Positions 1 to 60,900 of a stretch of DNA of 64,000 nt are shown in pieces; position 1 is the first letter of the stretch, and each line of letters begins with the position of its first letter. Both the position numbers and the translations under genes were made by a program. Location: positions 2,294,001 through 2,358,000 of the forward strand of contig CM030335.1 of NCBI GenBank assembly GCA_017654855.1, in the 5' to 3' direction. The stretch comes from Podospora anserina. Its lineage: Eukaryota. The notes under the pieces are model-generated. The model worked only from the letters and a program-made list of their open reading frames with translations, searched no databases and had not been told where the DNA came from.

Positions 1-241
1 ATCCGTGGGCCGTTATTCTGGGTTTGGGGGCTGGGTACATTTGTTTGTATACTACGACTTTGCATGTGGTTGGCATGGCGTTTGAGCTTTTTGATGTTGG
101 GGATTTGCATGGTCCAAGCATTGTTTGGTAGAGCTTTGAAGTATAAAGCAGAGTGTGCAAGCGTTGATGATGTTTTCTGTGGACTGTTTACTTGAGTGCT
201 CAACTATGTCTTCTGTGATTTGAGGTTTGCTTGGTGACCCC

Positions 242-460
242 ACGTCGTGGACAAAATAATACAGACTGCAACGCATAATGAAGGGCTTAAAAGATGATAG
301 AAAACATATTCGACTATCTTTTCAAGGCCTTTGGGCTCTCTTTTCAATGCCTTTCGACAATCTGTAAAGGTCGATTAACTGTGACTGAATACCTATCATG
401 TTGTCTTCAAGTCCTGTTGACGATCTTTTCAGGCATACTGGCTATCAGTAAAGGTCTATT
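242..460. repeat. Degenerate 21-bp-period array (AGGCCT-core family), copy 1
   Basis: Core hexamers at 283 GGGCTT, 325 AGGCCT, 347 ATGCCT, 368 AGGTCG, 389 ATACCT, 410 AGTCCT, 431 AGGCAT and 452 AGGTCT, spaced 21-22 bp. Spacers right of about 304 are reverse complements of the family spacer (e.g. 416-430 GTTGACGATCTTTTC). The left boundary is approximate. Confidence 0.75.
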
Positions 461-1224
461 TCTTTTCTATCCGCAGCATGGTGACTTACTCAGGAAAAGT
501 GACAACCTGTTGACTTCTCTATACTTCGCCAGGTACACGTTCAGGCACCAACGTCATCCGCGGGGGTCTAATCTGCATTTCTATCCAGCTCCCAGTCCTC
601 TCCCACAGCATTGAACTCCCCTCTCAACATCATGTGAGAGTGGTCACAAGGTCAGTTGGATTTTTCCTCCTCCTCAATTCAGCGTAATGATTGGTTACTT
701 CATCGCACTGTGCCATAATGTACCTACTTGGAGAAGTTGGGGTAAGTAAGACTCGGGGTTCTTCCAAGCTCTCTGTATGGTGATGACGATGTTGACTTTC
801 TGCGGGGTACCTGTAAAACCAAGGCTGTATTCATTTGTTGAAAAGTATCTGTAAAGGAAAATACCTAGTAGGTATAGACATCGCACAAAGACATACGTGG
901 GCTGTCGAAAGCTGATGATGCACTTCCTAAGGTATGCTCACTATACAACATAATGCTTCCGATATATGAGAGTATTCTCATGCCAGTGTATGCTTCCTCC
1001 ATGCTCATGCCATGCTGTCATGCTGTCATGCTCTAGTATATCCCTTGAGACCGCTTGCTATACCTGTTTCCCTTGCCTTGTTGCCAATGACACCCAAACA
1101 CCCCTGTATAATACAAAACTTTAACCTGATAACCTCTATCCTAGACTGAATCCCCAATAATGATTACCAAACATGAATAACAGTATACCCTAACAAACCC
1201 CCTCCCCAAACCATACCCATAATC

Positions 1225-9800: not shown

Positions 9801-10699
9801 CGCCGATCACCCAAACTACGACGTTTCAACTCAACATTGTCAACCCGTTTGAAGCAAACTATGATCTCCTGCCGCGGGTTCACCCGGATCCATGGCCAAG
9901 CTTGTTTGATGCGGATGGTGTCCGGAGTGCCGCTCCAGACGATGACGTTCCTTTAGCCTTCAAGGGTCTATCTCAGTCCTGGTGTCTGTTGACTCGTTAT
10001 GCCTCCTTTGCATCAGAGCCACTACGGGTGGTAGACATCGACGTGGTGCTGTCTTCCCTCCCATCAGTCAGATGCCACGCAATCAAGCACAACAATCTCC
10101 CCTCCTCGGGCGAAGGCCGACTAGTCGCCCCCAAAACCATCGAGGAAGCAGCCTTTGCGCTCAAAGCCCAAAAGGCCTCCCTCGACGAGCGAGGTCCATC
10201 ACCATTGGACGTCTCCCTCGTCATCAAATGGTCTCGTCCGGAGGTCTCGGATCAAATCAACAGCACTACTTTACCAGTGCCACGGTTCAATCTGTTTGGT
10301 ACGGAACCGCGGGTTTTGGCGACGGTCTCGCATATGTTTACACCGCACCCGTTGGTGGTCTTGACGGTGTATATTGAGAATGCGTCGAATCATCTGTTGA
10401 CGTTTGGGCTGACGATGGAGCCGAGTGACGAGTTTGCGTTTTCGGGGCCGAAGCAGACTAGTCTGAGCTTGTTGCCTGTGCAGAGGAGGGGGGTGGAGTA
10501 TAGGTTGGTGCCGTTTGATGATTTGGGGGAGGTGGGGAGGTGGGTGGGTGTTGGGTTGGTGGTTAGGGATAAGTATTATCAGAAGGTGCTAAGGGTTGTG
10601 CCCGGGGGCGAGGGGGTTAGGGGGACGAAGGAGGGGGGTGTGGAGGTTTGGATTCCGGGACGGGGGGAGGTGGAGGGGGGGGATGGGAAGGGGGAGTAA
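6871..10699 (+). CDS. TRAPPC11: Trafficking protein particle complex subunit 11 (Foie gras/Gryzun domains)
   Basis: Three exons joined by introns 7138-7208 and 8755-8804. Family-like motifs include SPLSPISPLYPDGLID..W..KH, GWNVRYDFK..FAEYRQE, and a Gryzun-type C-terminus (PFEANYDLLPRVHP, NASNHLLTFGLTMEPS.EFAFSGPK). Confidence 0.88.
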
Positions 10700-10841
10700 G
10701 GGGGTTAAAGAGAGTGATGGTGTAGATGTTTGGTCTTGTGTTAGTTTGAGATACCTATGAATGAGATGTTAGTGAGATTTGTAGACGTAGATATTGCGCA
10801 GCAGGTTGTGGGCACGGAAGTGAAACTGCTATGTGGAATAG

Positions 10842-11121
10842 ATGCCTGAAGTGTAGTTAAGAGGCCTTTCAATATGTTAATATGGCCTTTTAACGTGATT
10901 GATATGCCTTTCAACATGATCAACACGCCTTCCGATATAAATAAGTGATAGACCTTTAAAAATCATCAAGAGGCCTCTGGACATGATTGATAGGCTTCAA
11001 AAGATAGTTAATAGGCCATTCAAAATAATCAATAGGCTTTACAACATAACTGACAGGTGTTTTAGGACAATTAGGAGGCATGTTTATGAGATCTTGAGGT
11101 CTTCAGATTAGGTCAAGGTCT
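10842..11121. repeat. Degenerate 21-bp-period array (AGGCCT-core family), copy 2
   Basis: Cores at 10842, 10862, 10883, 10904, 10925, 10950, 10971, 10992, 11013, 11034, 11055, 11076, 11097 and 11116. All steps are 21 bp except one 25-bp step and the two terminal steps (20 and 19). Spacers resemble TTCAACATGATCAAC and CAAAAGATAGTTAAT. Confidence 0.85.
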
Positions 11122-12489
11122 CTTTTATTTAGTCCTCTACACGATATGTAATTGTAGACGTAATTCATCATGCCCTGTGAGTTTAGAAACTTCCAGGCAT
11201 ATCTATCCACACCAGCCAAAATTATACCCCTGAATAACCCCTTAGTACTTTGGATGTGCAGCTGGCACACGAGACCAGTATCTTTTCTTTTTCAGGAATC
11301 AGTTCTCACAAATTGTTGCTGTTTGCAGGTGAGAGACAACAAGATGCTATCCACACTGCCACATGCTCATCGTTCTTTCAACCGTAATTAAACATGGAGT
11401 ACTCGAACCACATTCCAATTCCACCACCTCAAAGGGAATCATCCGATGGCAATTTCCATTCACTCTTCCACAATAGCAATTTATGGACTTGAGATATTGC
11501 CCAAATGTGAATGACAATAACACCTTAACAGGTAGGTGATTGACAGTGCCTGAATGCCAACAAACACAGGGCCAGACATTCACTGGTGGGCCGTGCGTTG
11601 CCGCTAACAGCCGCTACTGCTACCTGTGTGAGAACCAACGCACAGCCAGCGAGAAACACAGCGCAACCCAAGCCGCAGGCGTCACCACTCGGGCTCTTAT
11701 TTTCCGCTGCTTGAGTAGTCAGCCTCATCTGGACACCCCTCAACCTGGCAACGACAGGAAGAGAGAAATTGCCAACTGAATCGCGACATCGGAGGTGTGG
11801 TTGGTTTCTGGATCGACAAGATATCAGAAACACCGTCGTATCAATTCCTCGGCTTGCTCAGGTACCATCCGCCATCCCCTCCAGGTCAGCATATCCAGCT
11901 CGCCTTGCCTGCAGCAGCCAGCCCAACCGCCAACGCAGACCCCCGCCAGATCCAGTTTCGGCACCGTGCACCTGCCAGGTCCTATTTTCTTCTGCTGGCG
12001 ACCATTCTTCCGAAATTTGATCTCGTTCGGCCGACTTTTGGTTCAGCTTGAGCATATCCCCCCCTCTTCTACTTCCTACACCGTCTCTCTCTCTCTCACT
12101 GCGACCCGCTTCGATTAGTCGTCGACAGAGCCACTCTTTCTCGGCGACCGACTACTACAGACAACAAAACAGATCCAGCCTACCCCTCGATCGACGACCG
12201 ACCGACCGCTTCCCCTTACCCCTCGCTACGCCCAGACTGTACGATAGCGTCACCGCTTTCACACGGGCAAGCACACAAATTAGAGGAAATCATAGACAGG
12301 ACAAAACCAATTTAGCAAGAGTTGGACCATAGAATACCAGGGCGACTCTCTCCCGACCATTCCGACCACCAGATCGTGTGCGGGGTTCATAGCCAATACC
12401 TACCTACCTACTACCAAAGTAACCAGCTCCGGATTTCGGGGCCTCATTCGTCTTCTTCTACAAGAGTCGCCACCTTTACCGCCGCAAAC

Positions 12490-19615: not shown

Positions 19616-19720
19616 TTCCCACACCGGGAATTGAACCCGGGACTTCAGGGAGTATCAGATCCTGAGATAATCTCAAGGATGACTGAAAGCCTGATATGCT
19701 GACCACTACACCATATGGGA
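19616..19720 (-). tRNA. tRNA-Glu (anticodon UUC) with a 33-nt intron
   Basis: Minus strand reads TCCCATA-TGGTGTAGTGGTCAGCATA-TCAGG-CT-TTC-A-[intron 19651-19683]-C-CCTGA-AGTC-CCGGG-TTCAATT-CCCGG-TGTGGGA-A. The cloverleaf is complete, the intron is at canonical position 37/38, and a T-rich Pol III terminator follows. Confidence 0.95.
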
Positions 19721-29441: not shown

Positions 29442-29615
29442 ACTCCTCCAGAGATAGTGTATAGCTTTTTCAAGATAGTTCATAGACCTTGAATAATAAG
29501 TGATAGCCATTCAAAGATAGTGGACATGCCTATCCGTGTCTTGAGGATGCATTCAATAATAAATAATAACCATTAAATGATAGTGAACAGGCCTATCTGT
29601 ATCGTAAGGAGGCGT
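29442..29615. repeat. Degenerate 21-bp-period array (AGGCCT-core family), copy 3
   Basis: Nine cores exactly 21 bp apart: 29442 ACTCCT, 29463 AGCTTT, 29484 AGACCT, 29505 AGCCAT, 29526 ATGCCT, 29547 ATGCAT, 29568 AACCAT, 29589 AGGCCT and 29610 AGGCGT. Spacers include TTCAAGATAGTTCAT and TCAAAGATAGTGGAC. Confidence 0.75.
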
Positions 29616-29713
29616 AAGTCGATCGCCCATCTAAGTACATTTGCTAACTTACAGCACTGCTGATATTATCTGGGGCGGGCCCCTTCCCCAGATACCAGTC
29701 CTCTTTATAATCC

Positions 29714-31136
29714 CTAGTCAGAGCCGCCCTCCTCGTTACCCCCATATCCACACTCACGAGCCATACGCTCCTCGTACTGCCCATCCTCCTCCGCCAGCCG
29801 TTCCAGCCGTGCCAGCCGTTCAACAGACTCGTCAACGTCACTGGTGCTAGGCGAAGGGAAACTAGCCCGTGGCACTTGCTTCCTTTTTATCCCCTCCACC
29901 CGCTTCCTCACCACCTCGCCAATCCCACGTTATGAGACTTCCGCAGGGAAAAGCCAAGGAGGCAGCGGCATAAAACCCTCTCCCTTCAAGTCAGAAAACG
30001 TATTCAACAACCTTCCGGCAGCCAAATTCACATTCCCAAGCCACCTTTCGGGAACCCACCGCCGAAGTGCAACTTCCGGACCGAGGGCACCTGTCCCCCT
30101 ATCAGGCCAGCCCAGAATAATCGGCGACTCAGGCTTCAACCTCTCCGCGGGTAGGCCCATCATCGCCCTATCCCCACGGTGATAAGGATGAGCAAAAACA
30201 TCCTGGTCCACCCATCTGTACACAAACGCACAAGTAAACCCAAACAGCTTGACACTCCCATCACTCAGAATCAACACCTTGCCCAGGCCAAGAGCATTGA
30301 CCCCAATCTCAACATTCCACCACATTTTATTACTCGCCTCCGACACCTTCCGTGGAATATCCAACCGAGTCTTCTCATCAGGAAGCATACCATGATCCAC
30401 CGTCCCATCAATGGTACGAGCCCTCCCAATCTTCTCCATCGTCTCCGCCCCCTTGTAATGATCCATCAACACCATCCTCACCCACCTCGCCGTCCTCTCC
30501 GGGACGTGCGTCTCCACCTCAAAATTAAAACTTCCATTAAACTGGGGGACGATAACCATCAGACCCTTCCCCCCCCAAAAAAAAAGACGAAAAACACTTG
30601 TACGCGTGCGTCTCGGTAGCGTAATCAAGCTCCGCCCTCGCCATGCAGTCCAGATACTCCTAGCACGCCTTCCCCTCCATCCGAAGATCACACCCTGGGT
30701 TGCCGTGGGGTGGGTAATCCACCCCGTCGTATATCTTCGCGACGGACGTGTTGTTGGGTTTGTTGTCCATGTAGCAAATCACCACGTGCGGTCCCCCTTC
30801 GTTTTCCAAATCGTTAAATTTGCGGGTGGCGATGTCTTGAGGGATGGTGATCTCGTAGATATCCCCAAAGTCGATAGGTTTTGTCTCCATGGGGGGGGGG
30901 GGGTTGTCAAGCGCAAAGTTGATACGGTCGGTGAGGGAGCTGCTTTGGGGGCCAGGGTGCTGCTGGTGGTTGTGGCCGACGTGGGAGTAACGACGGGGAG
31001 GTTCCCCATTGTAGTGTGTACCCCATGGTCCGGGTGCTCGATGTTTGAAGAGGGTGAGGGCGCGGCCGGGGCGGTAGCGTCCATGTGGACCAAGGCGGTC
31101 GGGCGAGGTGGTGGTGATGGTGTTGTCTGTGCTCAT
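29714..31136 (-). pseudogene. Disrupted fungal protein-kinase-like gene, paralog A
   Basis: Kinase-like family motifs VAKIYDG, DCMARAELDYATETHAY, IVPQFNGSF and RWVRMVLMDH. It is interrupted by an in-frame TAG (30660-30662), a frameshift in a T9G8 run (about 30569-30585) and an in-frame TAA (29930-29932), after which similarity to paralog B continues. Confidence 0.7.
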
Positions 31137-39064: not shown

Positions 39065-40843
39065 TCATGACTGATCCCCTCGTCTCAGCTTTAGAAGATC
39101 CACCAACTTCACCGACCCCTTCCCACCCCAGCCATTTGGGCCACTATCCACCTCTGGACGAATGGCGCAGTACCAAGCCCACGCCCTCCTATCGAGTTCT
39201 GCCACATCAAGATGATCCGCCCAGCTATCAAAAAGCAATCTCAACGCCCCAAGCAACAACCCCAAATTCTCCTCCCTCTCCGCCTCCAGTACTTTGGCCG
39301 TTTTATGCACCGCTTTTTTCTTTGAAGGGCTCGTCGCTGTTTCGTCGGCTGGTGGTGGTGATGGCTTCCCAAAACTCCTCAGCAGATACGATCTGGCCGC
39401 CTCGGGCCGGTGAATATGCATCCCCACCACATGGGTTAGCGGCTGCAGCTGCTTGCCTGACCCGTAACCTCCAACTGTGGTCCCAGGCTGGGCTTTTCTC
39501 ATGGCCTCGAGATCCAGGCCCCAAAGAGCCTCTCCTCCGAGTGAAATACTTCCTCCCGTCTTTCGCATTCGTTCACCGAGCGCAGACGTAACCGCATTTC
39601 TCATCAACCTCCACCTGTCCGGCCCTAACATCGTCCCTCCGAACCAACGGGTGAGAACGACAAGTGTATCGACCGCCCCAGCCTCCCGCATAACCTTCAG
39701 CATGAGATCCCCACACCCAGTCTCCCCATCATCAAACGACTCCTCCCTCATGGTCCTCTGAGTGAGCCAATTCGCATTCTCTGGCGGCTTCAGCCGGAAA
39801 GCCCAGGCATTATGCGTTGCACTCTTCAACTCAGGGTGATTATGCATCAAGCTCTCCATCAAGTACTTCCTCTGCGACGGTGACGTTAAATGAATGGCCC
39901 TCGCCACAAACTTGGAGTCCTTCATAATAATCGGCGGGCTCGTAGACCAAGTAGCCGTAGGTGTAGGCGCCGGGTCCAGCGTCGAGGCCGTCGTTGCACT
40001 CGTCGCCTGTGACCCTCCCGCTCCATCCTTTTTTTCGTCGCCGGACCTTTCCTCACCTTTCCACTCATACCCACTCCTTTTGAGAACCGCAACCTCCCTA
40101 CCCATTACCTTCACCCTCGGCTGACCTTCCCCATACCCCTCCTGATCCGCACTGGGGCCTTTGTCCAGTCCCAAACTCACAGCCTTGGACCGAGAGTTGG
40201 CGCTCACCACCGCCTGACCGAGGCTGAGTCTACTCGATAACGGCTGCTCAGGCATGGTATATCTAAGCATCTCCACCGCAAAGGCAAGTACGAGTGGCGC
40301 CCGGTTAGTTTCGATGACCGTCTCCTTTATAGTATCCTCGTCTGTGCATATTGGCAGCTCCAGGGAAGCCTCCAATTCCTGGGGGGTCATTTCAACAGGG
40401 CCAGTCATGAAAACGTCGCTTTTGGCGCGTTTGGATACCGGTGATGTGGATGATATTGATGATCCACGCTTGAGAACACCGCCGCCAGAGGGTGGTGATG
40501 ATGACTGTGTGGCATTTCTCTTGATGACGGCCTTGCAGGCGTTTTGGAGAGCGCGTGCGACCTTGTCGTCTTTGAGAGCTTCCTGAACGGTGGGGAGGGA
40601 CGCTTCGGATATTTGTTTGATGCTGTTTTGACTTGTTAGTTGATATTGAATCGGTATAGATGTCGATAAAGTCGTATATTCCCAAACGAATATGAGGTCG
40701 AGGCTCAAAATCAAGCCGATAGCTCACCTCCTGAGATCAACTGCCTGGAGGGCTTTGATTGATGTCATAGCTTGGAGCATGGGCATTTTTCTTGTGACGG
40801 TCATGAGCCGTATGAGGTCTTGGAGATCCTGTTGGGTAGCCAT
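39065..40843 (-). CDS. IMPACT/UPF0029 (YigZ-like) domain protein
   Basis: SKFVARA, ATHNAWAFR, DDGETGCG, and VVLTRWFGGTMLGPDRW are UPF0029 motifs. ATG at 40843, intron 40623-40727. Confidence 0.85.
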
Positions 40844-41066
40844 CTTTGCAATGTGACTGACTGCCTGGAAAACGATGAGGCCGGTAGACGTCTTCGTGAG
40901 AAATGTCGTGAAGACGAAGTGATGGTCGCGTGTGAGTGCCAGGAGAAGGGGCGAATCAGGATACCCCTGGCTAGCTTTGTGTGGGGAATCTAGGCACCTG
41001 TGGAGCCGTGTGCGGGAAGGTGGGGGGGTGGCATCATTGACAGAGAAAGACTGCAACAAGATAGCA

Positions 41067-41302
41067 AGGCCTTGAAAGACAATCAACAGGCCTTCAAACA
41101 TAATTAACAGGCCTTTAGGGATAGTTGATAGGCCCTGAACACGTATCAAAAGGCCTTGAAAATATATTAAAAGGCCTTCAAAACATATTAATAGGCCTTC
41201 GAAGATATTTACAGTCATCTCAATAGAGTTGAGAGGCCTTGAAAGACAGTCAAGAGGCATGCTAACCATCTTCTAAGGTCTGTTGATTATCTTTCAAGGC
41301 AT
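41067..41302. repeat. Degenerate 21-bp-period array (AGGCCT-core family), copy 4 (best preserved)
   Basis: AGGCCT-type cores at 41067, 41088, 41109, 41130, 41151, 41172, 41193, 41213, 41234, 41255, 41276 and 41297, with 21-bp steps and one 20-bp step. The approximate unit is AGGCCT-T(G/C)AAA(G/C)A(T/C)A(A/G)T(C/T)AAN. Confidence 0.92.
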
Positions 41303-41550
41303 TAATTATTTTGTCCATGACCTGACAAGGTGGGCCTTTACCGTGGTGAGCGTTGATTATGTAATCTCCACATTCGACACTCAACAAGAGTCTGATTGGC
41401 TGGAAAGCTCTGGCTCACTCAAGCTTCACAAATGACCATCAAGGGTGAGTGAGAGCTCACACCACACCCGCCCAGGCCACCACCGGATCCCGTACCCGGA
41501 CTTATATGAGAGCAGGGCAACACCCATCACCCCTCTCTCACACCACAACC

Positions 41551-42932
41551 ATGGCCTCCCGACTAAGGCTGTCCTCAAGGACACCCTTCTCATTACACCC
41601 TCACCTCTATTCACCTTCCAACCTGCCCAGCTACTCCCGCCAATTAACCCTCTCTTCAGCCCTTCAATACGCCAAACGAAAACCATCCCCATCCTCACCA
41701 CCCTCGCCACCCCAAAGCCCCCTCCGCTCCAAAAAGTCCCCCCTCCCCCCACCGAACAACTTCGTCCCCCCAAAACCAAAACTCTCCCTCTACCGCGACG
41801 ACACCCCCACCTCAAAACCCCCCCTCACCCTAGAAGAAAACATCCAACGCCACCGCAAAATACCCCTCTACGGCGCCCTCGCAGTCGCCTTCCTCGCCTC
41901 CTTGTACATCTCAGCAGTAGTAACAAACACCTTCAAAAAAACCCCCGTCTCCGACCTCTCCCCCCCCTCGGCCCATCCCTCCCCCAACCTCACCCCTCCT
42001 GCTGCCCCCCAACTGGCCTACCCCCCTCATTAACCCCCGTCTCCGCCCTCGAATTCGACACCTCACTCAACACGTCCGAAAGCCTCTCCCGTATCACCGC
42101 CAACAGAACCTACCTCGCCAGCCGCGCCAAAGGCCACGTCTTGGAAGTAGCTTGTGGCACGGGGAGAAATCTGCCGTATTACAGCTGGGAGTATGTAGTT
42201 CACCCGTTCGAGGAATACTCCCCCGAGGAGCAGCTCGCCAAGGCGAAGAGTAGGATGGCGAAGATATTGGATATTAAAAGGGGGAGTTCATGGGGGTATG
42301 GGACAAAGTCCAAGGTTACGGCTGGTGAGAGGAGGGTGGGGGGGATGGAGGGTGAGGTTTTGTCATATACGGCGGTGGATGTCTCGCCTGAGATGTTGTC
42401 TGTTGCACGCAATCGACTAAGGGAGTCGGTGCCGGGGTTGAGGCAGGTGATGGCTAAGAAGAGGGCTGAGCCCTACCCAAAACTGACGAACCCTGAGGAG
42501 GTCGTGCCGGTGGTTGCTGCGCTGGATGGGAGGGTTCAGTTACTGCTTGGGGATGCAGAGGCGGGACTGCCAAGGGGGAGGGAGAGGTATGATACGGTTA
42601 TTCAGAGTTTCGGGCTTTGTTCGGTGAAGGATCCACAGGGGTTGCTGGTGAAGATGGCGGGGAGGGTGGTGCCCGGGACGGGGAGGATTTTGTTGCTGGA
42701 GCATGGGAGGGGTTGGTTTGGGTGGATTAATGGACTGCTAGATAAGTACGCGCCGGGGCATTTTCAGAAGTTTGGGTGTTGGTGGAATAGGGATATTGAG
42801 GGGTTGGTGAAGGGGGCGAGTGAGGAGCTGGGGGGGAGGTTGGAGGTGGTGAGGATGGATAGGCCGTGGTATCATGCGGGTACGACGGTGGTGTTGGAGT
42901 TGAGGGTGAAGGAGGAGGGGGAGGGGAAGTGA
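41551..42932 (+). CDS. OMS1: Mitochondrial SAM-dependent methyltransferase Oms1-like; one apparent frameshift
   Basis: An Arg/Ser-rich presequence (MASRLRLSSRTPF) and a TM segment lie in one frame. The methyltransferase motifs (AKGHVLEVACGTGRN, YDTVIQSFGLCSV, GRILLLEHGR, FGCWWNRDI) lie in the -1 frame. The junction falls among C-runs at about 41955-42030. Confidence 0.82.
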
Positions 42933-49912: not shown

Positions 49913-51198
49913 ATGAGTTCAACCCCAACTGCGAACCTTGGTTCACATGAGCGTTACGCTGTGGGAACCAGACTCAAGCTCCACAAACATCGCGCCCCTG
50001 AGCCGTTTTGCTCGAATTACAGGGGACCACGCCCCAGGCGCGAAACATGTCGAGGCTCTGGCCGTCCAGACGATGACGAATTTACTCTCAAGGGCCGTGT
50101 CAACTTTGTCCTTCACAACCCCCCGTTGGCAACCGAACCCCCCCCAGACTCCTGGTGAGACCGTCATGACCATCACCGGCGACCTGAGCACCCGCGACTT
50201 CAAGGATGTCGAGCGTAAAGGAGGCCCCCGTGTAGTCACCTGCTACTCGGATGGCGACCCAACAATCAAGCACATGGCCAAAATATTCGACGCTTTGGAT
50301 CACCCTTTGATGGGTGATCCAAACTGTGACCTCCGCCCCCGGGAAACCTGCGTCGAGTGTATGGATTGCACAGCGCGCGCAGATCTGGACTACGCGATGG
50401 AAGCAGCTGTTTATGAGGGTTTTCTGCGCCTGGGAACGAGAAATTCAGGCACATCGTCCCGACGTACCATGGCAGTTGGACGTTTGCCCTGCCGACGCAT
50501 CAGGCTGGCAAGCCTCGGTGGGTGAGGATGGTGCTGATGGAGCATTTTGAAGGGGAAGTGATGGATAAAATCATGGGCAAACAAGTCATACCCAAGGACG
50601 ACGACGACGACGACGACTACAGCGAACCAAACATTAAATACACCCTCGACTACGGCAAACTTCCCCCCGAAGCAGACCGTCTCTCCATCATGAAACAAAT
50701 CATCGAAACCGAAATCAGGATGATGTGGAACGTCGAAATTAGCATTACACCTTGCAATGCGAGGCTCAAGACGGAGAATATCTTTGTCTGCAACGACGGA
50801 TCCGTCAAGTTCATCAGTTTTAGAGAGGCAAAGGTGTACCGCTATCTTGACGAGACGGAGGATCACCCAAACCAGATCTATGATGGGCGGTGGGACTCAG
50901 GCGTGCCAGCGGCGGAGATGAGGCCGATGAAGTCTCCGATTGAGAGATACTGGTCTAAATGCTTCCTCGAACCTTTCGATCGTTGGCTCCCAGAGGCCTG
51001 GGAAAAGAACGAGGAGTTGGCAAACGAGTGGTTGATTGACACGTTCGGCTCGGAGAAGGAGTTAGAAAAGTATGAGCCGATCAAAGACGAGTGGTTCTGG
51101 GAGAGAGAGCCTATAAGGGACAAGGCGAAAAGGTGCGCAAGTGGTTGGAAGATCATGATCCGGACGAGAGGCCCTCCAAGAGAGCTCGGCATGTATAA
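49913..51198 (+). pseudogene. Disrupted fungal protein-kinase-like gene, paralog B
   Basis: Colinear with paralog A (KHRAP, GGPRVVTCY, AKIFDALDHP, CDLR, DCTARADLDYA, IVPTYHGSW, RWVRMVLMEH, DGSVKF, SPI). It is broken by three frameshifts: C8 at 50138-50145, GGGTTTT at 50417-50423, and about 51095-51110. A TATA-like TATATAAA lies about 155 bp upstream. Confidence 0.7.
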
Positions 51199-51397
51199 TT
51201 CAACAGGACTATTACTACTAGTTGGACTTCTTGCAACATCTTTCAAGGCCTTTATATTTTATGTCAAATCTTCCCCCATGTGAACTTCAATCATCCCCCG
51301 TATCTTGCCCCTTTTCTTGGTGCGAGTAGGGTGTGTTCCGCATACCTCCACACATGAACCCACCTTCCGAGCAATTTCTCCAACAAATCAAGTAACA

Positions 51398-51468
51398 GCA
51401 TCAGTGGTTTAGTGGTAAAATCCATCGTTGCCATCGATGGGCCCCGTGTTCGATTCACGGCTGATGCA
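51398..51468 (+). tRNA. tRNA-Gly (anticodon GCC), intronless
   Basis: GCATCAG-TGGTTTAGTGGTAAAAT-CCATCG-TTGCCAT-CGATGG-GCC-CCGTG-TTCGATT-CACGG-CTGATGC-A forms a complete cloverleaf, followed by a T-run terminator at about 51481-51494. Confidence 0.96.
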
Positions 51469-54927: not shown

Positions 54928-54991
54928 AATCCAACATTTATCACCATGTTCGTTGAACGAATCCAACATTTATCATCATGTTCGTTGAACG
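54928..54991. repeat. 32-bp tandem duplication
   Basis: AATCCAACATTTATCACCATGTTCGTTGAACG (54928-54959) is followed directly by AATCCAACATTTATCATCATGTTCGTTGAACG (54960-54991), with one mismatch. Confidence 0.9.
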
Positions 54992-57942: not shown

Positions 57943-60900
57943 CTACGCCACAACGGGGCGGAGGATAGCCTCGAAGCGGGCGGCAACCTAGAAAACCCAT
58001 GTTAGAAGAGATTCAAGAGTGGAGGAAAAAGGATGACGTACCTCAGGAGCCGCCTTGATAAACGGCAGCTCAAAGAAATGAAACTTTTCATTCTTGAGCA
58101 ACTCGAGGATCGTGACCACGAGACCCCATGGCTGGGGCCAGTACCCAACCATGCGCTCCAAGAGAACTCGCACAATCTGCTGCCGAATCTCTGTCTCCTC
58201 CGGGTCGTCAAGATCGTGACCAAAAATTTCGACGATGGCATGGCTGAAATAGTTTGTCGACGCGTTGGCGAACCGGAGTTCGTTGACCATGCTGCTGAGA
58301 AGATAGTACCGTGTCTCGGCCGGCACCTCGGTGACCAGCATGTGCAGAGTCTTGACGTCGGGAGCCCCGGACACGAACACGGGCGCGTCACTGTTGTTAA
58401 CAGCGCGTTGGGAGGCCGCGTTGGCGATGTGGGAAACCACGGCGTCGACAACTCGGCGGTCGACATTGACAGGCACAAAGCCAAACGTGGTCAGGTCGGT
58501 ATCGGCGTGGTGCATCGCGTGCGTAATTTGGGCGATGGCGTCCTCCGAGGGTCCGTTTTGCAATGACTGCTCCAGGATGTCATAGAGCCCTAGTTCCTTG
58601 AGCTGGCCGGCGCAGTCATAAAAGCTCACCACCGGGTCCTTCATCTCGGGGATCCGATCAATCTTGAGTCCCGGCCGAAATGGATCGGGCACCTTGTCGA
58701 ACGGCGTCGTGGACGCCGACAAGATCATGTTGATGAGCTGTGTGGCATGCGAGGGCAGGCACTGGCATAGCTGCACATAGTTGGCAGAAAGATACTCCGG
58801 GAAGTCGTGGAAAAGCACAGCCACAAGCTTCACCGTGCCCGAGTACAGGTCCTTAGCGGCAAGGGACACTTCGAAAGCTTTCAGCATGTTGCCGAGATAA
58901 GAGAAGAGATGGGTGAGGAGCTTGGTGAAGGGCTCCCAGCCTGCCTGGTTGGGCATGCGCATGATCGCTGGGAGAAAGGCGCGGTGAGCCAAGAGACCCA
59001 TCCATTGAAACAAGAAGCCAGGGTACACAGCCGGCCGAAGGTCCCATAGACGTGCCGCAAAGTTGAGCACTATCTTTTCGCTCTCACTGTCTGAGAATCT
59101 CTCCGTCAGGTTCATAATCTGGTGGAAGAGATTGGAGAAGAAGCGGAAGAACACGCGTGGGTTGAAAGCGTCCCCGCGTCTAACGTGGTGGTTGTTCAAC
59201 ACAAGCACACCAAGAGCAAGGACAGAGTCCAGGAAGGCGACACGCGATGATTCGCTGGTGCCAGGAGCGTCGTGGGACTGAGTGAAGATGAGGATCATCT
59301 TGACGAGAGCGTCAACTGCCTGGAAGCTCTCGTTGCTGAAGCCTTCACCAAGGTGGCCACTTTGCTCAGCACGGTCGACGGATTTGTCGATTGCTTGCCT
59401 CGCAAAGACGAAAAAGTCCTCCTTGGTGACAATGTGCCGCCGCCAGTTCAACTGTTGCACAAACTTTGTGGCAGCCTTTTCCGAGGCGCAGTCGTTGTTG
59501 CATAGCTGCACCCATTCCTCAAAGATGTAGTCAAACTGCTCGAACTGAGCCTCGGGGGTTCGGTCAGGATGAATCTCGGGCGAAGGCCCCAGCACCTTGG
59601 CCTTGAACCGCTGGCCACCTGGCACTTCGGGCTCTTCAGTTATCCACGCCCAGGCTTCCTCCAAGCTCTGAACGAAATCGGTATAGAGATTGACAGGGGC
59701 CTCGCTGAACAGCGTAAGATCCATCAAGGACTCCAGAAACTCAATGGAACCGCTGCTCCGTTCATTCAACGCCTTGGCCATGGCTGCATCGATGCTGTGC
59801 CAATCAATGAGGTCCGTTCTGAGCAGCGCCGAGATCAGGGGCAGATTCAAAAAAGTACTACCTGACTGCTGGTAAAACAGCCAGCGGATCTGTTGACTCG
59901 TCGCCGGGCCCGCAACCTTTCGCAGCGTCTCCAGCACGTGGACCAGCGTCTCCAAGAGGAGGGAAGTGGGTTCGGGCTGCGGGCGGAAGAGAAGACCGGA
60001 GATTTGGGTCGCCACATAGACTGCAAATTCATCAGATGTCTGTTGAGTCTTGATTGTAAGCTGGACGACGGCGTCATGAATGTTGATAACTTCATGGGTC
60101 CGAGGGAGGTCCTCAAAGTGCTCCTCGGCCGTGTTGCTGACGGCAGTCGCCAGCTTTTCCAACAAGCTGTTCACCCGTTCCGCCACGTTCCGAGCGTCGA
60201 CAGGGCTGATGCCAGGTTGTCGGCCATTGACCATGCCAGCATGAACCGGAGGGTAATGCTGAGGTTGGACGCCCATGTGGGGAAGCGATGGGGTTTCAGC
60301 AGGGGTAGGAATGGTGGACACCGAGTTGTACTGGTCACCGAGGACTTCGTTTGCAATTGATCTCGCATCCGACGATGAAGGAACGTGCGAAGGCGTAACA
60401 GAGGCGGCGGCGGCGGCAGCGGCGGCAGCAGCCGCAGCAGCAGTCACCCTTGATTGCCGAGCAAAATCATCGTAGATGGCCATTTGCTCATCATTGAGGC
60501 CGCTCAAGCTGGGCTGCAGCTTGAAAGGAGCGGGGATAGTCCAGGCCCAGCGGTTCAGGCGGGGATCCATGAATGGGTCGTTGGGTCGGTTGATGCGGTG
60601 ATGGCGGCGCGCCTCGAGATCTTCTGCGAGTAAGTCCTCAATCTCGGGGACACCGCGCTCCTCAGCCGACTTTTCGATGATGCTGGAAGCCAGCTCCATG
60701 TTGGAGTTGACACACAACATGATGATACCTTCTGGGAGACCCTGAGGAAGCTCCGAGGCGAGCTGGCGGAGATAGTTGGTGAAGTTGGCGCGCAATGGCT
60801 CCTTGGAGGTCACAAGTGCCAAGCTCCCAGCAGTAGACTTGACCATGTTGACGGCAGCCATCCGAACCCTGTCCGGGTCGCCCTCGGTTGCGAAGTCCTT

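Follow-up and report, generated by a model that had tools for sequence, protein, structure and literature searches.

Gene Context of the Repeat Arrays

The window analysed here is a stretch of 64,000 nucleotides from Podospora anserina (GCA_017654855.1, contig CM030335.1, positions 2,294,001 to 2,358,000), and coordinates below refer to it. It is gene-dense nuclear fungal DNA with 53% G+C, whose long open reading frames (ORFs) include Dna2, a TRAPPC11-like protein (Foie-gras/Gryzun domains), Aim21, seipin, an IMPACT-like protein, a methyltransferase, a VIT-family protein and Not1. The protein closest to the IMPACT-like ORF comes from Podospora pseudoanserina (99% identity), followed by those of other Sordariales, with 89% identity in Apiosordaria and Triangularia and 65% in Cercophora scortea. 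Between these genes lie four non-coding arrays of a 21-bp unit, copies 1 to 4, spaced 10.6, 18.6 and 11.6 kb apart. All of them sit in short intergenic spacers, they occur on both strands, and they are about 190–330 bp long with 37–39% G+C (Table 1).

Copy 1 lies about 750 bp past the 3′ end of the Dna2 ORF, on the strand opposite to copies 2–4. The onset of copy 2 is found about 140 bp past the end of the TRAPPC11-like ORF, with the next ORF 1.2 kb further on, and copy 3 is flanked by two ORFs with no Pfam match. Copy 4 takes up 295 of the 662 bp (45%) of a divergent spacer, which runs from the IMPACT-like ATG at 40843 (−), a start set by the N-terminus of the homologue, to the first ATG of the methyltransferase ORF at 41506 (+). 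It is placed in the middle of this spacer, about 185 bp from either ATG. Rfam and tRNA scans of the window gave no match at any array. Strand-biased low-complexity tracts adjoin two of the arrays, a G-rich one at 10620–10700 before copy 2, which is the end of the TRAPPC11-like ORF, and a C/A-rich one at 41440–41720 after copy 4.

Table 1. Repeat arrays of the window, their parts and associated candidate features.
Feature	Position	Strand	Description
Copy 4 (best kept)	41029..41323	+	about 10 forward units, centre core, 3 reversed units
Copy 4, long arm	41067..41254	+	forward AGGCCT(T) units, consensus AGGCCTTTAAAGATAATTAAT; diverged 84-bp (4-unit) internal duplication
Copy 4, switch core AGGCAT	41255..41260	.	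forward spacer to the left, reversed spacer to the right
Copy 4, short inverted arm	41261..41323	−	three reversed units; cores at 41276, 41297 and 41318 (TGACCT)
Copy 4, terminal inverted repeat, left member	41056..41106	+	pairs with 41263–41314
Copy 4, terminal inverted repeat, right member	41263..41314	−	pairs with 41056–41106
Copy 1	241..478 (238 bp)	−	short arm 241–308, long arm 309–478
Copy 2	10841..11142	+	about 11 forward units (one 25-bp step), AGGCAT 11076, AGGTCT 11097, AGGTCT 11116, tail TTATTTAGTCC
Copy 3	29442..29630	+	decayed forward units in a 63-bp (3-unit) higher-order repeat
Direct repeat TTGTAGACGTA flanking copy 2	10779..10789 and 11152–11162	+	candidate target-site duplication, 11 bp, 0/500 shuffles
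Direct repeat AAGGTGGG flanking copy 4	41017..41024 and 41327–41334	+	weak candidate target-site duplication, 8 bp, p = 0.09
Candidate tail-only relic	51225..51270	+	one reversed unit, AGGCCT, TTATATTTTATGTC; about 130 bp upstream of tRNA-Gly (51398–51468)

The 21-bp Unit

Each unit consists of an AGGCCT(T) core and a directional, A/T-rich spacer of 15 bp, and the consensus of 31 units is AGGCCTTTAAAGATAATTAAT. A position weight matrix (PWM) built from 17 units gave 30 matches of at least 12 bits in the window, where 3.7 are expected per shuffled window, and these matches cluster at 282–457, 10862–11117, 29463–29567 and 41052–41302. When the threshold was lowered to 8 bits, 54 matches were found against 24 expected, and the excess lies mostly within the arrays. 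Self-matching at a lag of 21 bp is strongest in copy 4 (z = 7.3), followed by copy 2 (5.5), copy 3 (3.5) and copy 1 (2.6). Tandem Repeats Finder (TRF) reports period 21 at 41066–41200 (6.4 copies), 10856–10931 and 10990–11049.

Conservation within the unit is uneven. Positions 1, 6 and 7 are kept in 28–29 of the 31 units, compared with 11–15 of 31 for positions 8, 12 and 21, and decayed cores such as AACATA, ATACCT and AGCTTT are found in copies 1 and 3. We considered repeat-induced point mutation (RIP) as the source of the contrast between core and spacer and rejected it: the CpA+TpG/ApC+GpT index of 1.3–1.8 is not RIP-like, and departures from the consensus comprise 95 transitions and 94 transversions.

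A single frame, of 181 codons and with heptads (FEGLLIx), is open across copy 4 (40724–41269, −) and runs on into the first exon of the IMPACT-like gene (MATQQ...). It has no relative among 5.8 billion proteins and no frame stays open through copy 2, so that the frame across copy 4 looks accidental. A metagenome scan for three AGGCCT cores at 21-bp spacing returned at least 124 loci, and PWM scoring, with a closer look at five loci, recognised no relative among the matches listed. Two of the loci set aside (L044 and L024) are unrelated contigs with long runs of the AAAGGCCTTT type, a period of about 10.5 bp (10–11 bp) and palindromic units that score on both strands, which makes them AGGCCT-centred arrays of another kind; two others (L019 and L084) have 21-bp repeats that differ from the array unit and probably encode heptads.

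Orientation Switch Within the Arrays

The core is its own reverse complement, and the orientation of a unit can therefore be read from the spacer only. For this reason, spacers were scored alone, with a matrix trained on another copy; for copy 4, that matrix was a spacer-only PWM derived solely from copy 2. The chance level that we give for a score of at least 5 (P = 0.0044, random 15-mers of the window) refers to a PWM pooled from copies 2 and 4 and not to the copy-2-only PWM.

The first-pass annotation had described the spacers of copy 4 as forward until the core at 41255 is reached and as reversed beyond it, and the spacer-only scores bear this out. The 13 spacers comprise seven forward ones, two ambiguous ones, an AT-rich, near-palindromic one (41157–41171) leaning to reverse, and three reversed ones after 41255. 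Reverse and forward scores of these last three are 7.5 and −11.6 at 41261–41275, 11.9 and −13.2 at 41282–41296, and −9.2 and −14.4 at 41303–41317, which is weak when taken alone. Phase is kept across the switch, again as had been claimed: the cores fall at 41067, 41088, ..., 41234, 41255, 41276 and 41297, the steps are 21 bp throughout, around the switch as elsewhere, with a single exception of 20 bp (41193 to 41213) well before it. The spacer at 41282–41296 is the reverse complement of TGAAAGATAATCAAC, and it is the sole other match in the window, on either strand and with at most one mismatch, to the first forward spacer, TGAAAGACAATCAAC.

A layout of forward units, centre and reversed units had also been described for copy 1, and we recover it. 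The forward unit at 282–302 (score 11.9) is followed by a degenerate centre at 303 and then by reversed spacers, four of which score 6.7–8.2. This layout mirrors that of copy 4. Core steps in copy 1 are 21, 22, 22, 21, 21, 21, 21 and 21 bp, with two 1-bp phase slips just past the centre. In copy 2, the pair formed by AGGCAT(G) at 11076 and AGGTCT at 11097 does parallel the pair at 41255 and 41276 in copy 4, as previously noticed; the reversed spacers there have decayed so far that they no longer register as such (best reverse score −2.4). Spacer scoring found no flip and no demonstrable inverted arm in copy 3 (29463–29610).

A Shared Short Arm and Common Descent of the Copies

When units are placed in register and ends are aligned, the flip is seen to mark a three-unit short arm ending in ...TTATTTTGTCCAYGAC and not a free-standing dyad. 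In copy 4, the short arm reads AGGCAT, GCTAACCATCTTCTA, AGGTCT, GTTGATTATCTTTCA, AGGCAT, TAATTATTTTGTCCA, TGACCT. Its outermost spacer, TAATTATTTTGTCCA, the conserved "tail", is a reversed unit into which 1 nt has been inserted. Copy 1 (as reverse complement) and copy 2 have the same three units in identical order and a closing TTATTT(T/A)GTCC motif. In copy 1, the short arm holds the tail GGACAAAATAA at 249–259 (plus strand) and a single clear inward unit at 282–302.

No match between copies was obtained with blastn; their common features are the 21-bp motif, kept in phase, and an end module of 60 bp, neither of which blastn can detect. Tails were compared by Smith–Waterman alignment of each tail with 2128 overlapping segments of the window, on both strands. 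The tails are reciprocal best non-self matches in the correct orientation, with a score of 21 for copies 4 and 1. The tail of copy 2 finds its best non-self match in that of copy 4 (16), followed by that of copy 1 (14), and unrelated loci score at most 13; in the scan with the copy 1 tail, unrelated loci reach 17. The motif TTATTTTGTCC occurs seven times in the window with at most one mismatch, where 0.95 occurrences are expected (0 of 100 shuffles reach seven). Copies 1, 2 and 4 each have one of the seven at the corresponding end, and the other four are unrelated sequence.

Common descent of the copies is observed in this end module, which three of the four arrays share. Dispersal is observed as well, at unrelated intergenic sites and on both strands. 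All three flips have identical polarity and position relative to the tail end. Since copies 4, 1 and 2 have positionally homologous short arms, the flip, its polarity and the arm itself were inherited from one founder and go back to one event. It follows that counting switch polarities among such arrays would mostly count ancestry. The change of orientation thus came down with the element as part of its structure, and it does not mark a dedicated site of control.

A possible fifth member is the candidate relic at 51225–51270, which was found by eye together with a single PWM match at 51231–51251 (−, 15.8 bits) and is absent from the top Smith–Waterman matches. It may be a tail-only remnant of the element.

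Inverted Termini, Folding and Flanking Repeats

The two ends of copy 4 are inverted repeats of each other. Segments 41056–41106 and 41263–41314 have 40 identical columns out of 52 and a local alignment score of 27, and shuffled sequences give 9.6 ± 1.5 with a maximum of 15. The next-best register for the reversed arm scores 22 and corresponds to the internal 84-bp duplicate of the far-end block. The best partner of the reversed arm is thus the outermost set of regular units at the far end, so that the two form a terminal inverted repeat, and the reversed spacer resembles the first forward spacer because both belong to it. By eye, copy 4 (long-arm end) and copy 1 (short-arm end) seemed to share an outer "AGACTG-CAAC" module; this had no Smith–Waterman support and was dropped.

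At the flip, single-strand folding predicts a pronounced hairpin for copy 4 (z = −4.3), a weak one for copy 1 (z = −2.4) and none for copy 2 (z = −0.3), and such uneven folding among the three copies makes a hairpin function unlikely. The element as a whole does not fold back on itself, a partner being present for the three-unit short arm only.

Flanking direct repeats were found around three of the copies. Those of copies 2 and 4 are candidate target-site duplications (Table 1); that of copy 1 is 7 bp long (p = 0.44 by shuffling), and copy 3 has none. End signatures of hAT, Tc1/mariner, Helitron and long terminal repeat (LTR) type were compared by eye, and none fits.

Turnover of the Long Arm

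The long arm has about 10 units in copy 4, 11 in copy 2 and 7 in copy 1, and the short arm has three. Long arms of copies 4 and 2 show no in-register homology (diagonal mean of 12.4/21, compared with 10.8–12.2 off the diagonal). Copy 3 contains a 63-bp higher-order repeat with 48 of 63 positions identical at lag 63, compared with 25/63 and 24/63 at lags 21 and 42. Every third spacer there (29484–29609), namely ATCCGTGTCTTGAGG at 29532 and ATCTGTATCGTAAGG at 29595, scores neither forward nor reverse. In copy 4, a diverged 84-bp repeat is seen (44/63 at lag 84, 33–41 at other lags), and gapped blastn aligns 41066–41115 with 41150–41199 as an internal duplication (84.6% over 52).

The arrays turn over locally by multi-unit blocks. 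The long arm grows and shrinks in place and the short arm is stable, which accounts for the "asymmetric arms" of the first-pass annotation. That annotation had set a shared dyad against simple tandem amplification, and the contrast is too sharp: long arms do grow by local tandem duplication, as the 63-bp repeat of copy 3 and the 84-bp repeat of copy 4 illustrate.

Other Features of the Window

A second tRNA, probably with an intron, is located at 19616–19720 (−) and was reported by Rfam and not by ARAGORN. The tRNA-Trp called by ARAGORN at 60127–60208 (+) lies within the Not1 ORF, was not seen by Rfam and is probably false. A tandem pair of a 32-bp unit is found at 54928–54991 (96% identity, TRF score 121; 96.9% by blastn), and 30457–30486 and 50517–50546 form an inverted 30-bp match (93%).

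Origin of the Arrays

We hypothesize, with moderate confidence, that the arrays are old, degenerate copies of one small, non-coding dispersed repeat, about 240–330 bp long, of the P. anserina-complex genome, similar to foldback elements or to MITEs, the miniature inverted-repeat transposable elements. The founder would have been built of 21-bp subrepeats, each a palindromic AGGCCT core with a directional 15-bp spacer, pointing inward from both ends. One end would have been the short three-unit arm closed by ...TTATTTTGTCCAYGAC, and the opposite end a longer run of like units, so that the orientation flip would be the meeting place of the two inward-pointing arms. With a palindromic core and a unit length of 21 bp throughout, an inverted unit falls into the register of its neighbours, and phase is kept. 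Following dispersal, unequal exchange or slippage of multi-unit blocks altered the length of the long arm, and the short arm held its position. The copies may have spread by cut-and-paste transposition and the 21-bp units may represent repeated transposase binding sites, which would be reminiscent of the subterminal repeats of hAT, CACTA and P/Galileo elements and of the subrepeat arms of Drosophila FB; a spacing of two helical turns would set such sites on one face of the DNA.

The first-pass interpretation stands in part. The flip does belong to a defined element architecture shared by several arrays, and foldback-like arms fit what we found. A symmetric nucleation site with bidirectional spreading, the other possibility that had been put forward, is without support: the centre is conserved no further than AGGCATG, and in two of the three flipping copies.

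Drosophila FB and Galileo-like elements carry inverted arms of short tandem subrepeats that point inward, unequal and variable in length, with little or no unique sequence in the middle, and their length changes by unequal exchange. The Podospora arrays resemble them in these respects, with inward tandem subrepeats in the inverted arms (copies 4 and 1) and unequal arms whose length varies between copies. They differ in being about ten times smaller, with three units in one arm, a strict 21-bp period and a palindromic core, and in that neither a coding relative nor a consistent target-site duplication was found. In hAT, CACTA (En/Spm) and P elements, subterminal transposase-binding motifs of 6–12 bp are irregularly spaced, with opposed orientation and asymmetric number at the two ends. 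Many short motifs, opposed at two ends and unequal in number, are likewise present here, but the array units are contiguous and phase-locked at 21 bp.

Several MITE families of fungi and animals offer a further comparison. Degenerate families of Epichloe are described with 49–90% pairwise identity (PMC3227409), and DTC84 of the clam Donax trunculus is presented as a MITE that carries internal tandem repeats (PMC3879986). As far as these descriptions go, the arrays are alike in being small, non-coding, intergenic and multi-copy, with highly diverged copies and a tandem-repeat core between end modules; they differ in that tandem unit and terminal inverted repeat are here one and the same 21-bp unit. 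In P. anserina, the MITE families discodeles, mantella and altiphrynoides are annotated, with at least 62 MITE rows on chromosomes 1 to 6 in the tables consulted of PMC8105982. According to the same source, these MITEs are short and not marked by H3K9me3, and the arrays are like them in species complex and size class. Density and spacing are unlike those of the annotated rows, a comparison made by names and coordinates. Compared with MITEs, the second terminus of the array copies is loosely defined, and their candidate target-site duplications vary in length.

A number of our own results weigh against this origin. Copy 3 contributes neither flip nor inverted arm. Only in copy 4 is the inverted similarity of the two arms significant, and in copies 1 and 2 it does not rise above shuffles (scores of 12 and 14; shuffles 10.0 ± 1.7 and 10.2 ± 1.9, respectively). 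The outer ends of the long arms give no cross-copy Smith–Waterman signal above unrelated loci. With no such homology of the long-arm ends and with copies 1 and 2 at shuffle level, the second terminus is loosely defined, and in copy 4 alone. The candidate target-site duplications are unequal in length (11, 8 and 7 bp) and one alone is significant; the 11-bp pair around copy 2 is not flush with the array, its members lying 24 and 9 nt outside recognisable units. Four copies in 64 kb are far denser than the at least 62 MITE rows of the consulted tables over chromosomes 1 to 6. The uneven conservation within the unit could reflect selection on a binding motif and not neutral decay. Finally, mobility of the copies is something that we infer; it does not figure among the demonstrated features, namely that the copies share descent, are dispersed, have an inverted end structure, do not code for protein and turn over locally.

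Selection on a binding motif leads to the main rival explanation, in which the arrays are platforms for a host protein, either exapted from an element or never mobile. A factor would bind a site of about 19 bp (ATYAAY-AGGCCT-TSAAAGA) every two helical turns and act at promoters, terminators or boundaries, and the inverted end units would form a convergent pair of sites. The strict 21-bp phasing agrees with this, as do the far better conservation of the core and a few spacer positions (28–29 against 11–15 of 31 units), which no RIP signature accounts for, and the low G+C content of the arrays, islands of 37–39% in a 53% window. All arrays are in short intergenic spacers, with copy 4 central in a divergent promoter. 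However, the contexts are heterogeneous, since three copies lie behind genes and one between promoters, among unrelated housekeeping neighbours, and copies 1 and 3 are heavily decayed, cores included. Uneven conservation is equally expected if the units of the founder already differed, and outside the arrays no clear enrichment of isolated units is seen, little of the excess of matches at 8 bits or more (54 against 24) being located there. We know of no factor that matches the array site; the motifs of GATA, PacC, Rme1, Ste12, forkhead and AbaA proteins do not seem to fit consistently. We regard a host platform as unlikely.

Multi-unit tandem duplications inside the arrays, long arms without positional homology between loci and the lack of blastn similarity between loci would all be natural if the arrays were minisatellites that arose independently in place from a seed containing AGGCCT, with units reversed by local inversion or by template switching during replication. 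Such an origin fails to explain why an identical three-unit inverted arm and tail stand at the matching end of three loci, and why the AGGCATG/AGGTCT core pair is shared, and we consider it very improbable. It is somewhat easier to imagine, yet still hard to favour, that the arrays are fragments of a larger known Podospora repeat with 21-bp subrepeats, be it part of a solo LTR, a family listed as "unclassified", or a MITE of the families discodeles (about 230 bp), mantella (about 300–380 bp) or altiphrynoides (about 400–460 bp). In the tables consulted, the P. anserina annotation is rich in solo-LTR, unclassified and MITE features of 60–600 bp (PMC8105982), and full-length discodeles rows of about 230–245 bp come near the length of copy 1 (238 bp). 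Against this, the MITE rows of chromosome 4 and all transposable element rows from 1.91 Mb to its end, as given in those tables, show no four short features spaced 10.6, 18.6 and 11.6 kb apart; the window is assigned to chromosome 4 by the locus tag of the closest homologue only (QC764_408430), and the annotated strain may differ. Neither TG...CA ends of LTR type nor 5-bp duplications were seen at the arrays.

The literature is silent on such structures as far as it was searched. Section 10 of the Podospora genome paper makes no mention of such arrays (PMC2441463). A literature search, for Podospora as for other fungi, returned no account of AGGCCT arrays with a 21-bp period, and a search for fungal foldback elements listed none, which as a listing is no proof of absence.

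Implications for the Podospora Genome

Taken together, the array family most likely represents a small mobile repeat of a familiar kind, one that is new or at least not recognisable in the annotation. If this is confirmed genome-wide, a small, foldback-like element built of subrepeats would be added to the repeat catalogue of a model fungus deemed repeat-poor. It would also mean that strongly diverged families can escape BLAST-based annotation in gene-dense regions. A bolder conjecture, to which we give little credence, is that the arrays form an abundant family missed by standard annotation and kept in gene spacers by a sequence-specific protein, perhaps a domesticated transposase, that binds sites centred on AGGCCT, two helical turns apart and on the same face of the DNA. 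In that case the arrays would organise gene boundaries or promoters, with the convergent end units setting polarity.

For the reading of similar arrays, the case indicates that a "dyad" recurring in several of them can be a single inherited feature and not repeated evidence for a mechanism. For the biology of the genome, copy 4 occupies 45% of a divergent promoter, with the other three copies abutting gene ends, which makes the family a plausible source of cis-regulatory variation.

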